From assembly GCA_963704705.1 (NCBI GenBank), contig OY969931.1, forward strand, positions 510,001 through 542,000: a DNA stretch of 32,000 nt, given 5' to 3'. The position numbers were made by a program, and so were the translations under genes. The notes under the pieces were generated by a model that saw only the letters and a list, made by a program, of their open reading frames with translations, made no database searches and had not been told where the DNA came from. Shown piece by piece: positions 3,646 to 8,931 of the stretch. How positions within the stretch are numbered: position 1 is the first letter of the stretch; each line of letters starts with the position of its first letter. Origin of the DNA: an uncultured bacterium. GTDB taxonomy: Bacteria > Patescibacteriota > Gracilibacteria > UBA1369 > PNNO01.

Positions 3646-4251
3646 ATGCATAGTTTTAAATTAACAAAGATTAATAAAAATTCATGGTATTTTCCGCTTA
3701 TTATTGTAGTAATATTTTTTTTATTAAGTTATTTTTTTAGAAATCAATATACTCCGATTATCTTTGTTGTAATTTTTTTCTCTTTTACGATAATTTCCGG
3801 CATGCTAACAAAGAAAGTAATTTTGGAGGTTCAAAATAACAATATAATGATTAGAACAAAAAGCAGCGAAGTAATATTTATGACATCAATAAAACCAGAT
3901 CAAATTAAAAAAGCATTATGGAAAGATGAAGGAAAGGGGATAGGCCCGGCAGTTATTTTAAAAATGCCTGATGGTACTGACATTTCTATTGGTACCATGA
4001 ATATAAGTTTTAATTGGGCTCAACCCGTAGAAGAAATTATTAAACCAAATTATTCGTTAGAAGATAAACAATGGAATGATTTTATTCAGGCAATCGGTTT
4101 ACATAGCGAAGTTTTAAACTCCGATGAAATTTTAGCAAATATAGAAAAAACAAAAAAAGTAGTAACTAGAATAAGCATGGGAATTATTATATTTACAGTT
4201 GCCTTGGTTTTAATTTCCGTGGGGCTTCTTTTATGGCTCGATATTTCTTGA
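3646..4251 (+). CDS. Hypothetical membrane protein (2 N-terminal TM helices, soluble middle, C-terminal TM helix)
   Basis: The ATG lies 1 nt after the pheA stop. Hydrophobic segments are YFPLIIVVIFFLLSYFF, IIFVVIFFSFTIISGML and GIIIFTVALVLISVGLLLWL. I recognise no family. Confidence 0.6.
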   Translation: MHSFKLTKINKNSWYFPLIIVVIFFLLSYFFRNQYTPIIFVVIFFSFTIISGMLTKKVILEVQNNNIMIRTKSSEVIFMTSIKPDQIKKALWKDEGKGIGPAVILKMPDGTDISIGTMNISFNWAQPVEEIIKPNYSLEDKQWNDFIQAIGLHSEVLNSDEILANIEKTKKVVTRISMGIIIFTVALVLISVGLLLWLDIS

Positions 4252-4346
4252 TTTGTTTTCCGTTTGAATAAGCCGTATGAATCGCGGTAGAGCAAGGGAA
4301 TTTAAAATCTTTAAGAATTTTGGAAGTTATTCGGTAAGATAAATTT

Positions 4347-5594
4347 CTATTTAAAAATACCGTTTGAGCGAAGATAATGATGTTTAGGTAGTCCCATAAA
4401 ACGGCATTTCTTTAATATTTCCTTGGCTTGCTTTTTTGATTTATAAGTAAGCTTTCCTGTAAGAAATTTAGTTACAATATTGAAAAATCTATTGGATAGA
4501 TATTGAACTTGTTTTGTATCAGTAACAAATTGATATGCTCTGGCATATTGTGAGAAATATTGATTTTGTTTCTTTTTATCCAGCCATAAAAATTCTTTAA
4601 GTCTTGCAATTCTTTTTGTTTCTGTTGTATGTGGATTATATTTGAATCGTTTTTTCCATTCTTTTGATATTCTGGTAATGCTTTTTTGAGGAAATTGAAC
4701 TTTCCCGTCTTTATATTGTAAACCGTGAAAATCAAAAGTTAAGTCATTAATGTTGCCGAATTGGCATTTATCCAGATTAAATTCGAGTTTCAATTTTTTA
4801 ATTTCTGTTTCAAGGTATAGTTTTATTTTTCTAAGTTTAACCGGGTCTTTATCCATTATTATAAAATCATCTCCTACTCTTCTGTACAGTGCAACCTGTT
4901 TTCCAATTATGTTATCAAGGTGATTTACATTCAAATTAAGGAAATGAGGACAAAAAGTCATACCCTGCAAAATACCTGTTCTATATGACATTAATGTTCC
5001 TTTATTAATGAATGGCTGTTTGATTATATTTCTTATGATTTCAAGAACGCGATCTTCAAAATCCATATTTTTTAGAATCTTCAAAATTATTTCATGATCT
5101 ATAAAATCAGCATATTTTTTAATATCCATTCTTAATACATATAATTCTTTACCGTAATTTCTAAGATAGAATCGCCTAACGCTTCTTGATGCGTAATAAC
5201 TGGCTTTATCACTTCTGAATGAATATACATAATCTGAATATGCAGCTGCAATAACCGGTTCGATTTGTCTTAATACGGCCTGACATTTAATTCTGTCTTT
5301 TAAAGTTAAAGAAAATGTGCCTCTGATTCCACCGTCTTTTTTAGGAACTTCGATATATTTTGCAGGTAATAAATTAACACCTGTTTTTAATTCTTTTTGG
5401 ACTGTTGCAAGCAGTTTATCGATATTTATTTCTGCCTTGGAAAGTGTTTGTCCATCAATACCTTTATAGCTATAAGTTTTGCATTTTTCAGTAAATTTTT
5501 TATATAAATCCAAATATGCCTGGCTTATGTTGTCCCAGGACACAATTGCATCATACATCGAAATTGGTTCTTTTGTTTTGAATAAATTCAGCAT
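4347..5594 (-). CDS. Stand-alone prokaryotic reverse transcriptase (415 aa): RT fingers/palm plus an alpha-helical C-terminal extension
   Basis: RT motifs by eye: motifs 1-2 PKKDGGIRGTFSLTLKDRIKCQAV (aa 84-107); YSFRSDKASYYA; motif 3 LRMDIKKYADFIDH (aa 155-167); motif 4 GILQGMTFCPHFLNL; motif 5 LYRRVGDDFIIM (V240-G-D-D243, nt 4866-4877); motifs 6-7 LEFNLDKCQF....FDFHGLQY. There is no endonuclease, nitrilase, primase or other fused domain. Confidence 0.9.
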   Translation of the reverse strand: MLNLFKTKEPISMYDAIVSWDNISQAYLDLYKKFTEKCKTYSYKGIDGQTLSKAEINIDKLLATVQKELKTGVNLLPAKYIEVPKKDGGIRGTFSLTLKDRIKCQAVLRQIEPVIAAAYSDYVYSFRSDKASYYASRSVRRFYLRNYGKELYVLRMDIKKYADFIDHEIILKILKNMDFEDRVLEIIRNIIKQPFINKGTLMSYRTGILQGMTFCPHFLNLNVNHLDNIIGKQVALYRRVGDDFIIMDKDPVKLRKIKLYLETEIKKLKLEFNLDKCQFGNINDLTFDFHGLQYKDGKVQFPQKSITRISKEWKKRFKYNPHTTETKRIARLKEFLWLDKKKQNQYFSQYARAYQFVTDTKQVQYLSNRFFNIVTKFLTGKLTYKSKKQAKEILKKCRFMGLPKHHYLRSNGIFK

Positions 5595-5925
5595 TTTTTT
5601 TGTATTCTCTGAAACGCCATTACAATACAGTTACGCCATAAAAATAATATAAATGACTAACTGTTAGTGATATGCATACAACTTACTGATCAATCCATAG
5701 GTGATCTGAAAGTGGGTTATGAAGAGAATATGAATATATTCTTAGAATAACTCACTAAGAGGATCATTAGTGGATAGTGAAGAAAGTATGTATGCTTTAC
5801 AATTCCCACTGTTATTCCCGGCATCTGTCAGGGAAATAATTATAATTTCTTAAATAACAGCCGCAATGTTTTAGATGCATCCCTTCTCAAAGATAAAATT
5901 GTAATGGCATTTCAAAGAACAAATC
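5595..5925 (-). ncRNA. Candidate structured noncoding RNA / long 5' leader co-transcribed with the RT gene (possible RT template or scaffold RNA)
   Basis: There is no ORF longer than 35 codons on either strand. A 17-bp long-range stem forms on the minus-sense RNA: UGAAAUGCCAUUACAAU (5914->5898) pairs with AUUGUAAUGGCGUUUCA (5626->5610), with a single U-G wobble. The same position would be an A-C mismatch on the plus sense. The stem encloses 271 nt that contain several local helices. The 3' arm ends 15 nt before the RT ATG. A promoter lies just upstream of the 5' arm. Confidence 0.5.
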
Positions 5926-5930
5926 GTATT

Positions 5931-5939
5931 ATTATACCA
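5931..5939 (-). promoter_or_regulatory. Extended -10 promoter (TGgTATAAT) driving the RT leader/ncRNA
   Basis: The minus strand reads TTTTGTGGTATAATAATACG. TATAAT is 5936->5931 with TG at 5939-5938. The -35 is weak (TTAGCT). The predicted start is ~5925, about 10 nt upstream of the 5' stem arm. Confidence 0.5.
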
Positions 5940-5996
5940 CAAAATTAACAAAAAGCTAAATATTGTATATGTATAGGTTAAGTTTTGCCTTTATTC

Positions 5997-6025
5997 TGGT
6001 AAAAAAGGCAATTTTGTAGTATAAT
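5997..6025 (+). promoter_or_regulatory. Candidate promoter for the ABC-like/PLD/PrsW cassette
   Basis: TGGTAA (5997-6002), 17-nt spacer, TATAAT (6020-6025), 26 nt upstream of the ATG at 6051. It overlaps an 8-bp hairpin (5985-5992 / 6004-6011). Confidence 0.3.
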
Positions 6026-6050
6026 AATCAGAAATAAAAAATAAAAATAA

Positions 6051-7772
6051 ATGCAATACGAGCTCACAAAAAAACAAATAATCTCGGAATCAAATAAAAT
6101 TCGCAGCGAATTTAGGCGAATAAACTTGGAAAAAAGCCAAAAAAAATATATTGGAAATTTTCTAAAAAAACACAAAAAGACTTTTTACATGCTTATTATT
6201 CTTACTGCAACTGAAACGCTTATAAGCATAGCTTTGCCGATAATAAGTCATCTTTATCTGGAAAAAAGTTTTGATTTGATGAGTTACAGTACTTTTCTGA
6301 TTGTTGGAATTAGTCTGTTTGTTTTAATTATTTTGTTTTTAATTAATAGTTTTTACAGGATTTTTGCCACACAGAAGTTCACAATGGAGGCTATTAATAA
6401 CGTACGTGAAGCATGGTACATTTATTATTTAAAGCACTCAGCTGCTTTTAAAGCAAACTTTGACGGGAAAAAATTGATGACCAAGTTCTTATATCATATT
6501 CAGTTATTAAGGCTTGGAGTAAGTAATGTTCTTGCAACAGGGCTTCAGGCTCTTTTGATGTATATTGCGATTTTGTTGTTTTCAATATTTTTCAATCCAA
6601 AGTTGTTTTTGGTTTTATGGCTTTCTGTGCCGCTTTTTATAATAATATTTCTTATCACAGATTATATAGGACGACATTATATTACCCGCGAACAAACATT
6701 TAACAGCAGAATAGTCGAACATTTAGCTGATACATTATTGAATTTTTCTCTGTTTAAATCACAGGGCAGGGAACGGGCAAAACTTAAAGACTTTGATAAT
6801 TTGATTGAAGTAGATACTTATTTTAGAATTAGAAGACAATTATGGCTTCAATTCAGTAATAGATTTTTGTATGGAATTATTCTTCTTGTTGGAGTGATTT
6901 TCTATTTTGTTCAGATTTACTGGCCATTTGTAGAATTTGATTCTCTTACAAATGTGGCAGCGACAGGTATTATAATGGCATATTTTGTGAAAGTTTTATA
7001 TTCCACAGCAAGAGTAGGAATGTTTTATGAGGCATTTAGATTAGGTTTGAGATTAGTAGTGCCAAAATTTCCATATAATATAAATAAATCCATCCTTAAA
7101 CTTCCAAGTTGGAAAAAATTGAGATTCCATAGCAAAAAAACAAAGCTCGCAAAATATGGAAATTACATAAAAGATTTTAATTTTGAAATTGAAAAAGGGA
7201 AAAAATATCTTGTCTATTCGAATGGATCATATGGAAAATCAACACTGGCAAAATATTTAACCGGTACAAAATCCAATTCGAGTATAATTGTAAATCTCGA
7301 TAAAAGGCGATTCACTTCCGATATTTTCACTTCTTACAAAAATAACAGCTTCTTTATTTCCGAGGAAATCCGTTTTGATATTACTCTGGCTGAGTACATT
7401 TTTGCTAAAGGTCTTGATGATATTTCAAGAGCTGATATTGATGAGTTAATAGATAAGCTGAAAAAATACGAAATATTTGATTTTTTATTTGATCATAAGA
7501 GTTTTATTGGAAGAGAGGTTGTATCAGGGGATCTTTCAACACAGGAAAATGCACTTTTGCAAATTGCACATTGTATTATGAATCCTAAAAAACTTATTTC
7601 TATTGATCACAGCTGTTTTGATGAATCTTATTCACAGATTATAAGAGGGTTGGAAATTTTGTTAGAAGAATGTCCTAAAACCACATATGTTTTCTTTTCA
7701 AATAAACCAAATAATTTATTTAAGTATGACAAAACGTTCGAGCTTAATAAGGCCGAGTTTAAAGAGATATAA
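6051..7772 (+). CDS. ABC exporter-like protein (N-terminal 6-TM type-1 exporter domain + C-terminal nucleotide-binding-like domain with degenerate catalytic motifs)
   Basis: The TM-rich region is aa ~45-330. The NBD-like region has Walker A-like SNGSYGKST, a signature-like LSTQE (instead of LSGGQ), Walker B LISIDHS (D-H instead of D-E), no Q-loop Gln (FFISEE), and FFSNKP where the H-loop His is expected. These alignments are by eye. Confidence 0.65.
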   Translation: MQYELTKKQIISESNKIRSEFRRINLEKSQKKYIGNFLKKHKKTFYMLIILTATETLISIALPIISHLYLEKSFDLMSYSTFLIVGISLFVLIILFLINSFYRIFATQKFTMEAINNVREAWYIYYLKHSAAFKANFDGKKLMTKFLYHIQLLRLGVSNVLATGLQALLMYIAILLFSIFFNPKLFLVLWLSVPLFIIIFLITDYIGRHYITREQTFNSRIVEHLADTLLNFSLFKSQGRERAKLKDFDNLIEVDTYFRIRRQLWLQFSNRFLYGIILLVGVIFYFVQIYWPFVEFDSLTNVAATGIIMAYFVKVLYSTARVGMFYEAFRLGLRLVVPKFPYNINKSILKLPSWKKLRFHSKKTKLAKYGNYIKDFNFEIEKGKKYLVYSNGSYGKSTLAKYLTGTKSNSSIIVNLDKRRFTSDIFTSYKNNSFFISEEIRFDITLAEYIFAKGLDDISRADIDELIDKLKKYEIFDFLFDHKSFIGREVVSGDLSTQENALLQIAHCIMNPKKLISIDHSCFDESYSQIIRGLEILLEECPKTTYVFFSNKPNNLFKYDKTFELNKAEFKEI

Positions 7773-8931
7773 AAAGCATTTCTTTATGCTTGTGGGATTT
7801 CTACTGGTGACTGCTTACCCTGTTTATTTGTTGTCTTCTGATCTTTCAGCTCATTTTATTATTGAACATCAATATAGTCCTAATTTTGAGGTTAATGTTG
7901 ATTATGATTTGGATTTAAATGTTTATGAAAATATTAACAATCAAATAAGTTTTACTGAGAAAGTATTGGACTCTATCAATAATGCACAAGAAGAAATATA
8001 TATAGCAATGTATTCATTTAATATAGAAGAAATTAGAGATGCATTGGTTAAGGCTGAAGAAAGAGGTGTTAAGGTAGTTCTTTATTATCATAATTCCAAG
8101 AGTTTGAAGATGGATGAATTTTTGGGAGATGTTAAAGACAAATTAGATGTCAGATATGTAGCAAAAATTGAAGGTGGAGAAAGTTATTATAATCTTCATC
8201 ATAAATTTATGATTGTTGATCCGAATCTTGAGACCAGGATTTTATTAACCGGCCCATGGAACTGGTCACATTTTCAGGAGGATTTAGATCCTAATATTAT
8301 AATCGAAACTCATGATAAAGAAATTATAAGTAGCTATATGCAGGAAATCGGAAGAATTGACAGAGGTTATTCTGGATATTTTAAATTCAGGGATTTAACT
8401 TATCTTCCTTGGGATAAATTGATTAATTATCCGAATGGTGAAAGTGTTGAAATTTGGTGGTCACCTGGAAGAAATGCCAATTCAATCGAAGGAAGGGTTA
8501 TTGCATTAATTAAAGAAGCAAAAAATAAAATTGATGTAAGTATGACTCAATTTGATTCGTATCAAATTGCTACATGGCTTATAAGAAGGGCTAAAGACGG
8601 AGTTAAGGTAAGAATGATAGTAAGTGCCAATACTGTTGAAGACGAACAATCAATTGTTCCATGGTTTAAAAATAAAATTAAAGAATTGAATTTAAATATT
8701 GAAGTGTATGAAGGAGGCACTTTAGCTACAGAAGAGAATCCTGAGTATTCGATTTTTCATCATCACAATATGATTATTGACGATAAAGTAACATTTACAA
8801 GCACGGCAAACTGGACGTTTGGAGGATTTTTTGCGAATGATGAAAACAGTATGGTAATTACAAGTGAAAAAATTACAAAAGATTTTCAAAATATATTTGA
8901 TAACTATTTAAATTACCTAAATAATAAATAA
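7726..8931 (+). CDS. Membrane-anchored phospholipase D / HKD-superfamily protein (two PLD-like halves)
   Basis: The first half has an intact HxK(x)4D motif, YNLHHKFMIVD...LLTGPWNWS. The second half reads FHHHNMIIDDKVTFTSTANWT, which keeps His, Asp and the S-x-N but lacks the Lys. The ORF-track start at 7687 overlaps the ABC gene by 86 nt. The ATG at 7726 (MTKRSSLIRPSLKRYKKHFF + TM helix LVGFLLVTAYPVYLL) gives a typical positive-inside signal anchor. The ATG at 7786 is an alternative start. Confidence 0.7.
   Translation: MTKRSSLIRPSLKRYKKHFFMLVGFLLVTAYPVYLLSSDLSAHFIIEHQYSPNFEVNVDYDLDLNVYENINNQISFTEKVLDSINNAQEEIYIAMYSFNIEEIRDALVKAEERGVKVVLYYHNSKSLKMDEFLGDVKDKLDVRYVAKIEGGESYYNLHHKFMIVDPNLETRILLTGPWNWSHFQEDLDPNIIIETHDKEIISSYMQEIGRIDRGYSGYFKFRDLTYLPWDKLINYPNGESVEIWWSPGRNANSIEGRVIALIKEAKNKIDVSMTQFDSYQIATWLIRRAKDGVKVRMIVSANTVEDEQSIVPWFKNKIKELNLNIEVYEGGTLATEENPEYSIFHHHNMIIDDKVTFTSTANWTFGGFFANDENSMVITSEKITKDFQNIFDNYLNYLNNK

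Follow-up and report, generated by a model that had tools for sequence, protein, structure and literature searches.

A conserved pseudoknotted RNA upstream of a group-II-like reverse transcriptase in Patescibacteria, a probable partner RNA of the enzyme

The stretch of DNA analysed in this study (the window) comprises 32,000 nucleotides (nt) of contig OY969931.1, positions 510,001 to 542,000, from an uncultured bacterium of the Gracilibacteria. On its minus strand it carries a gene for a reverse transcriptase (RT) of 415 amino acids (aa; 4347-5594, Pfam RVT_1), and the 456 nt between this gene and a divergent gene at 6051-7772 are without long open reading frames (ORFs). The comparative data indicate that this region encodes a conserved, strand-specific and highly structured non-coding RNA (ncRNA) which is tied exclusively to the RT family and two partner genes, and that it is not a plain 5' untranslated region or a promoter spacer. 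The structured core is 318 nt long (5604-5921, minus strand, from the 5' arm to the 3' arm of its closing helix) and constitutes the 5' leader of the RT mRNA. All of the evidence is comparative and computational. With a probability of about 0.6, the RNA is a partner bound by the RT, acting as a scaffold and probably as a template for DNA synthesis, and working together with two envelope proteins. The module has four parts, the ncRNA, the RT, an ABC-like protein and a PLD protein.

Approximately 130 loci were gathered, of which genome contigs supplied 55, metagenome contigs 60 and exact protein look-up 15, and the region upstream of the RT could be scored in about 110 of them. The RT family is rare: 35 matches were obtained among 5.8 billion proteins, about 32 of them clearly within the family, and a profile search of 1.84 billion cluster representatives gave about 45-55 clusters above ~230 bits, with generic group-II-like RTs at lower scores. 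The named loci belong nearly all to Patescibacteria, including Peregrinibacteria, Falkowbacteria, Magasanikbacteria and Paceibacterota. The RTs form four main clades at ~45% identity. In the ~110 loci the RT is preceded by a gap free of ORFs, in most cases 230-460 nt long, regardless of the strand of the upstream gene. An earlier sequence-only reading of the window had proposed a structured RNA upstream of the RT and in the same orientation, with a long-range closing helix and a retron- or DRT-like layout, and this part was upheld when homologous RT loci were checked for conservation and covariation, as conserved structure with compensatory changes was present upstream of the RT; neither a conserved branch G nor a conserved never-ending frame was found. 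That reading had described neither the pseudoknot and the true P3 helix of the RNA nor two conserved partner genes, and its picture of a system consisting of just an RT and an upstream ncRNA was wrong, as the ABC-like and PLD proteins always belong to the unit as well.

The RT-sense RNA (5595-5925) had a minimum free energy of -100.7 kcal/mol, compared with -61.0 +/- 5.1 kcal/mol in dinucleotide shuffles (z = -7.86). Its closing helix, P1, joins a 5' strand at 5898-5920 to a 3' strand at 5604-5626, with double changes in 7 of 18 counted pairs. The helix of 17 base pairs (bp) originally noticed in the window (5914-5898 with 5626-5610) is exact, with one U-G pair, and extends to 22-23 bp: the ungapped extension covers 22 nt at 91% complementarity, or 23 pairs when wobbles are counted (5920-5898 with 5626-5604). 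Its 3' arm stops 9-15 nt short of the start of the RT gene (ATG at 5594), the extended strand reaching to 9 nt from it. As had been stated, no ORF of more than 35 codons is present inside the RNA.

Within P1, the RNA is read on the minus strand as a succession of hairpins and joints. The P2 hairpin (5881-5892) is variable in length among relatives, with double changes in all four of its pairs, and is followed by the 5' strand of a pseudoknot, GCAUCU (5873-5878), which pairs with AGAUGC (5821-5826) in the loop of P3b. P3 is a three-way domain, in which a 5' strand (5853-5866) pairs with a 3' strand (5803-5816, including AGUGGG), with double changes in 10 of 13 pairs; inside it, beside a small P3a, lies the P3b hairpin CUG-ACAGAUGC-CGG (5818-5831). 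The middle pair of P3b takes five standard pair types (U-G, U-A, C-G, A-U and G-C) in five close orthologs with 73-81% RT identity. A joint, J3/4 (5795-5802), separates P3 from P4 (5677-5794), a long irregular hairpin and variable arm in which 23 of 38 pairs are compensatory in the five close orthologs, and whose length in relatives ranges from roughly 20 to 200 nt, being very short in some. The alignments then show a conserved single-stranded segment, J4/5 (UGCAUAUCACUA, 5665-5676), which sits between two stable helices and contains a CUCAYU-type motif recurring across all clades. The last hairpin, P5 (5627-5664), abuts the 3' strand of P1, and is 100% paired with double changes in 6 of 7 pairs.

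The inner details of the sequence-only reading fared unevenly against this comparative model. Its hairpin with a CCC/GGG core corresponds to P3b, and the pairing of AGAAUAU with AUAUUCU is backed by covariation; the pairings of AGUGGG with CCCACU and of CACUAA with UUAGUG lie outside the comparative consensus and were rejected, and AGUGGG belongs to the 3' strand of P3. The CACUA motif does occur three times (5779, 5772 and 5669; shuffling P ~0.002), but it is not conserved as a triple. The duplication of AUGGCGU is not conserved either, and was therefore ruled out as a template-realignment repeat.

Covariation was assessed in MAFFT-based alignments of 16 window-clade RNAs (A3) and of 19 upstream regions from clade 9 (A4). 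For the 16 window-clade RNAs, the RNAalifold consensus comprised 45 pairs, of which 28 were compensatory. In A3, 95.1% of cells were paired, versus 34-53% when the 3' partners were slid by 1-3 columns, and the covariation score was 0.459, versus 0.14 or less in the slid controls; the observed values were reached by none of 500 shuffles. Pairing-preserving changes were already present among the five close orthologs. The strand of the RNA had first been deduced from a single wobble position. When the 45 consensus pairs were examined in all 16 sequences, 77 G-U and 8 A-C combinations were counted, and therefore the helices are on the RT-sense transcript and not on its complement; the strand specificity was thus borne out and generalised. 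For the pseudoknot, 96 of 96 cells were Watson-Crick in the window clade, with double changes in 5 of 6 pairs, compared with 19-50% in slid controls; in clade 9, 114 of 114 cells were Watson-Crick and 5 of 6 pairs were compensatory.

The RNA extends well beyond the window clade. The RTs of clade 9 are ~30% identical to the window RT, and A4 gave a consensus of 60 pairs with compensatory changes in 50, its helices following one another as they do in the window (P1-P2-P3/P3b-P4-P5); the same layout was seen in clades 6 and 12. Of 90 loci, 70 have a P1-type long-range helix, with its 3' arm ending 0-40 nt before the RT start, that scored higher than any of 20 shuffles. No simple sequence motifs of the window clade were found in the distant clades, and the cross-clade homology emerged through per-clade alignments and a covariance model. 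This model, R1, was built from the P3 domain of the window clade alone. It recovered an unseeded member of the clade (L126) at 87 bits, and gave 13 matches in other clades with E < 0.2 (the E-values of the model being rough), 11 of which lie ~150-350 nt upstream of the RT and on the RT strand. The remaining two are located at 156-255 in L071 and ~660 nt upstream of the RT in L004. In the whole 32-kb window, the only R1 match was the RNA upstream of the RT. A looser scan for a hairpin plus pseudoknot was discarded as uninformative, with 89 of 90 loci matching against 77 expected by chance, and alignment-based pair counts were used in its place. A scan of positions 4000-7000 against Rfam 15 with E-values up to 10 gave only chance-level matches (E >= 1.2, well below gathering scores). 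The RNA constitutes a new family, with no Rfam match, strong covariation and a pseudoknot.

Some loci may harbour more than one copy of the RNA. In L017 (~1130-1230), and also in L077, a second copy of the 3' end, from J4/5 through P5 to P1, is present just upstream of the complete RNA, which in L017 suggests a tandem or partial duplication of the RNA gene. The upstream gaps in L008, L043, L045, L052, L053 and L004 measure 620-1100 nt, and several are big enough for two RNAs. The P3-domain match in L071 (29.7 bits, approximate E ~0.003) lies ~1.9 kb upstream of the RT, and may be due to chance or represent a second RNA copy.

An extended -10 element, TGGTATAAT (5931-5939, minus strand), is the putative promoter of the ncRNA-RT transcript, a function inferred from its conservation. 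The box had been noticed at 5939-5931 on the RT strand, and it proved to be both present and conserved: TGnTATAAT-type boxes occur in orthologous loci, 9-38 nt upstream of the 5' arm of P1. A generic sigma-70 scan did not list the TGGTATAAT box because its -35 element is weak. A mirror promoter box, AATTTTGTAGTATAATAAT (6010-6028, plus strand), faces the ABC gene, is conserved in orthologs and forms an inverted repeat with 5928-5946 (19 nt, 95%), with the result that a box of the form AATTTTGTrGTATAATAAT stands before both divergent units, the ncRNA-RT unit (5928-5946) and the ABC-PLD unit (6010-6028). In the window clade, the ABC-PLD pair is inverted and divergent from the RNA-RT pair, and the doubled promoter box looks like the remnant of an inversion that split an ancestral operon. 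The RNA remained in front of the RT after this inversion, which argues that it serves the RT and not the whole operon.

The RT itself was compared with the known families by sequence and by structure. The best family match was to the group II intron RT/maturase model TIGR04416, at 133.2 bits compared with a cut-off of 300 bits. The PADLOC models for DRT and UG families gave 55-87 bits, among them UG17 at 69.6 bits and Drt9 at 54.7 bits (E 1.8e-15, a partial match); UG26 was the closest UG group by score, the window RT scoring 86.9 bits and that of L006 119 bits (265 of 398 model positions). The Drt2 model was not in the top 25 PADLOC matches of the window RT, and gave partial matches of 30-66 bits for distant homologs. 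Retron RT models scored low (NCBIfam retron_St85_RT, 25.8 bits against a cut-off of 235; PADLOC models, 28.5 bits or less). By sequence, the closest solved relatives were group II intron RTs, followed by Cas6-RT-Cas1 and DRT9. The AlphaFold model of the enzyme (pLDDT 87, pTM 0.81) superposes on the whole GsI-IIC RT (TM 0.74-0.79), including the N-terminal extension, the thumb and the C-terminal helical domain; next in rank were G2L4, DRT9 and the DGR RT, and retron RTs ranked far below group II RTs. No variation was seen in the catalytic aspartates, and in place of YADD motif C has YRR[VIL]GDD (YRRVGDD in the window). The enzyme therefore appears to be an active free-standing group-II-like RT outside every named family scored. 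With a group-II-type fold and sequence and no intron RNA, it falls within the free-standing group-II-like (G2L) RTs, a loose operational class; G2L4 is distant from it (42 bits, 13-15% identity). Four proteins of 740-858 aa (P0079, P0081, P0087 and P0091) matched the RT profile in two or three separate stretches, and may be tandem or fused RTs related to the family.

Two further genes belong to the unit. One of them, which in distant clades overlaps the stop codon of the RT and measures ~570 aa, encodes an ABC exporter-type transmembrane domain with a nucleotide-binding domain. The product of the divergent window gene at 6051-7772 (plus strand), an ABC-exporter-like membrane protein with a degenerate ATPase site, is a specific homolog of these distant partners (94 of 94 matches, up to 275 bits). 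The family has kept Walker A and the Walker B Asp and has lost the LSGGQ signature and the H-loop His; the catalytic Glu is replaced by Asn in 58 of 71 homologs and by His in the window protein. The full set of a canonical ABC exporter (intact Walker A, LSGGQ, Walker B with Glu, and H-loop His) is therefore absent, and the protein is probably a nucleotide-binding, non-hydrolysing pseudo-transporter.

The PLD gene (7687-8931, plus strand; Pfam PLDc_2, 5e-39) follows in 99 loci, and encodes a two-domain (HKD) protein with an N-terminal membrane anchor; in public annotation its start is placed 13 codons further downstream (401 aa). Among solved structures, the proteins closest to it are the nucleases NucT and Nuc, and Zucchini/MitoPLD. 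Its second HKD motif has a conserved variant form, HxH (HHHNMIID in the window). In each of the 58 PLD homologs examined, the N-terminus is rich in Lys/Arg and leads into a single strong hydrophobic helix, and by the positive-inside rule the catalytic domains are predicted to face outwards, a topology based on hydropathy and charge alone. The PLD family matches the RT in rarity and occurs on the same contigs, and its nearest outgroup carries a secretion-sorting domain.

The system resembles several known RT systems in part. It shares with DRT9 (UG28) and DRT10 (UG17) an upstream structured ncRNA, with a large closing helix and stem-loops, and a single-protein RT without RNase H; DRT9 is also among the best structural matches of the window RT, and DRT10 likewise has a membrane effector, SLATT, where the partners here are the ABC-like and PLD proteins. 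It differs from both in its scores, which are far below family level, in an RT closer to group II intron RTs, in its Patescibacteria hosts and in the lack of a defence-island context in the 40 loci inspected. The RNA is also about twice as long as that of DRT10 (~320 nt versus 137 nt) and has a covarying pseudoknot. For DRT2 (UG2), an analogy suggested by the sequence-only reading, the resemblance lies in an upstream ncRNA of comparable size in which a stem joins distant segments, and the differences in the lack of a Drt2 profile match in the top families, the lack of a conserved never-ending frame and the presence of two extra conserved proteins. A Vsr-like endonuclease has been reported as the partner of UG26 (PMC9226505). 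This endonuclease is absent here, and the score of the RT against UG26 is below family level.

Group II intron RTs (GsI-IIC and that of E. rectale) and G2L4 provided the best sequence and fold matches (128-133 bits, TM 0.74-0.79), but no intron RNA is present here, and motif C contains VGDD rather than YADD. To our knowledge, G2L4 has no dedicated RNA partner, in contrast to the dedicated non-intron RNA and the two membrane proteins conserved here. Retrons also have inverted repeats that close a structured RNA just upstream of the RT, and a tripartite architecture that includes effector genes; in several retron types the partners are ABC-type ATPases and a nuclease. Inverted repeats of the a1/a2 kind are present here as P1, which at 22-23 bp is much longer than is typical and encloses a different fold; the RT is not a retron RT, no branching G is conserved and the RNA has a pseudoknot. 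Unlike the retron partners, the ABC-like protein has an exporter-type transmembrane domain, and the PLD protein is predicted to be extracytoplasmic. Ciliate-type telomerase RNA consists of a closing stem I, a stem-loop, a pseudoknot and a distal stem-loop. The RNA described here is likewise a ring closed by a long-range helix, with a hairpin, a pseudoknot and a distal arm, but this is a resemblance only; neither sequence nor models relate the two, and a template or boundary element could not be identified here. The RNAs of Class 2 DRTs have been linked to telomerase RNA (PMC12632851).

Several observations weigh against the RNA being a partner and template in a defence-like system. No template was located in the RNA. 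No branching G is conserved in the five columns after the 5' strand of P1 in either alignment, and no U-tract is conserved across the clades; the poly-U template loop of DRT9 thus has no conserved counterpart here. P4 is dispensable in length (it is short in L057 and L001) and is too variable to encode a required product. Short A-B-A' repeats, an arrangement that DRT10 has in the template loop after a stable stem-loop, were seen by eye in J4/5 of some clade 9 RNAs (for example UCAUU-G-UCAUU in L010, L053 and L079), but these are too short to be distinguished from chance. The nearest relatives of the RT, group II intron RTs and G2L4, either bind an intron RNA whose splicing they carry out or use no dedicated RNA. 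The predicted outward orientation of the PLD protein fits poorly with a cytoplasmic nuclease effector. The flanks of 40 diverse loci consist of ordinary housekeeping genes (DNA polymerase III alpha, RNase HII, sigma factors and pilins), with no enrichment of defence or mobile-element families. In the window clade, the locus has kept one chromosomal place down to ~45-50% RT identity, flanked by PLD/ABC at one end and by prephenate dehydratase and YtxH at the other, which is unusual for defence systems.

A stop-free circular frame, as in DRT2, had been put forward as a test of the P1-enclosed segment. In the window, the longest open runs of the circularised segment were only 37 codons (sense) and 43 codons (antisense), and no conserved never-ending frame was found on either strand, a fully open frame being present in 1 of 16 relatives. 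In this relative (L125, a 54%-identical ortholog), the 261-nt P1-enclosed segment at 2703-2963 has one sense frame which is stop-free when circularised (87 codons); this is probably due to chance, although a DRT2-like never-ending ORF would be expected to look like this. The best template candidates appear to be the conserved single-stranded joints, above all J4/5, which might alternatively be a site of protein contact.

The most substantial alternative is that the RNA is only a cis-regulatory leader, which controls the translation or stability of the RT mRNA, for example through autoregulatory binding of the RT near the start codon, and has no template role. Group II intron RTs bind near their own start codon, at domain IVa, in such autoregulation, and the RT is group-II-like. 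The RNA is the 5' leader of the RT mRNA, the 3' strand of P1 ends 0-40 nt before the ATG, with Shine-Dalgarno-like sequences there in clades 6 and 9, and no template was found. Nevertheless, five helices and a pseudoknot with perfect covariation, spread over some 300 nt, far exceed what is needed for masking a ribosome site, the core is conserved down to ~30% RT identity, and the structurally related DRT9 templates from such an RNA (PMC12632851). Regulatory and template roles are also not mutually exclusive, and a purely regulatory leader is possible but on balance unlikely. Another alternative places the feature at the DNA level, as a divergent-promoter spacer whose inverted repeats are sites of protein binding or recombination, with no functional RNA. 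The region does lie between divergent genes in the window, and the second inverted repeat spans both -10 boxes; however, the pairing is strand-asymmetric (77 G-U against 8 A-C), the compensatory changes keep the helices and not the sequence, and the same structure also precedes the RT in loci that have an unrelated, co-directional gene upstream. This explanation is already contradicted by the comparative data, and we give it almost no credence.

Two alternatives concern the ancestry of the RT. If the locus were a true retron, P1 would correspond to the a1/a2 duplex of msr-msd, and the product of the RT would be msDNA branched from a guanosine 2'-OH. A structured RNA bounded by inverted repeats does directly precede the RT in one transcript, and homologs are named 'retron-type RT' in one JGI source. 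The RT, however, scored no more than 25.8 bits with the St85 model and 28.5 bits with the PADLOC retron models, and its closest folds are group II RTs and not retron RTs; a G is not conserved after the 5' arm, and a pseudoknot with a five-helix core is unlike msr-msd, which makes a retron highly improbable. A degenerate group II intron or other mobile retroelement, with the upstream RNA as a remnant of intron domains I-IV, would agree with the best RT family match (group II RT/maturase, 133 bits) and with the full-length fold match to GsI-IIC. The score is nevertheless far below the 300-bit cut-off, and no group II match (Intron_gpII or group-II-D1D4) was obtained from Rfam in positions 4000-7000 with E-values up to 10. 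Domains V and VI would not fit, as the stop codon of the RT is overlapped by the ABC gene in most loci and is followed by only 95 nt in the window. The window clade is syntenic and not mobile, and integrases or transposases are not enriched nearby. An intron remnant is accordingly a very doubtful explanation.

The favoured explanation, an RT-bound partner RNA, may be set out as follows. An RNA of ~320 nt with a pseudoknot, the leader of the RT mRNA, would be produced from an extended -10 promoter of its own, and would be bound by the group-II-intron-like RT to give a ribonucleoprotein. In this view, which follows the analogy of DRT2, DRT9, DRT10 and retrons (PMC12632851, PMC9226505), the role of the RNA would be to position DNA synthesis and probably to serve as its template; Class 2 DRT RTs template from upstream structured ncRNAs (PMC12632851). 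The ribonucleoprotein would work with two invariably linked envelope proteins, the ABC-exporter-like partner, which probably binds and does not hydrolyse ATP, and a membrane-anchored PLD-family nuclease or phospholipase. P1 may have additional functions. In clades 6 and 9 it covers Shine-Dalgarno-like sequences (of the GGAG/GGGGG type), and therefore a regulatory role in RT translation is likely as well; by burying the ribosome-binding region in several clades, P1 may limit this translation. With 22-26 bp it is also a plausible RNase III substrate, and may be the site at which the RNA is freed.

The cassette is carried by only a small fraction of Patescibacteria and is present in two or three copies in some genomes, and it is therefore an accessory system; an accessory, defence-like role is the most likely one. 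In some lineages it looks vertically inherited, among housekeeping genes. Divergent copies of the whole cassette occur in single Patescibacteria genomes, with L012, L029 and L030 belonging to one metagenome-assembled genome (CAYOAT010000007.1 and CAYOAT010000004.1), and paired copies are found likewise in L005/L031, L038/L048, L017/L039 and L010/L040. In the window, a 201-aa ORF (3646-4251, plus strand) without a match in Pfam, NCBIfam or PADLOC lies between the RT and prephenate dehydratase genes. It is missing at the same position in the 81%-identical ortholog L116, a 210-aa gene is found there in L121 and L122, and it is a variable insertion adjoining the cassette.

A search of the literature, which did not cover one possibly relevant preprint (10.64898/2026.09.22.753630) that has none of the terms Patescibacteria, ABC or PLD in it, found no description of this RT family, of the RNA or of the RT-ABC-PLD association in Patescibacteria. 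As far as could be found, a degenerate ABC exporter and an outward-facing PLD protein have not been described with any RT. A speculative and rather unlikely extension is that of an RT system of a kind not recognised before, working at the envelope and not in the cytoplasm, in which a telomerase- or DRT-like ribonucleoprotein makes DNA or senses nucleic acid and is coupled to a non-hydrolysing ABC-exporter-like channel and a surface-exposed PLD nuclease or phospholipase. If true, possible roles in episymbiotic Patescibacteria would be to export or present RT-made DNA, or to gate how foreign DNA or host lipids are taken up or degraded. The known systems of an RT with an ncRNA (retrons, DRT2, DRT3, DRT9 and DRT10) each uncovered an unexpected mode of DNA writing, and the hosts of the present one are candidate-phyla-radiation bacteria, whose immunity and dependence on hosts are poorly understood. 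The RNA model and the ~110 loci make the system directly testable, with regard to the DNA, if any, that is made, the RNA segment that is copied and the coupling to the membrane.

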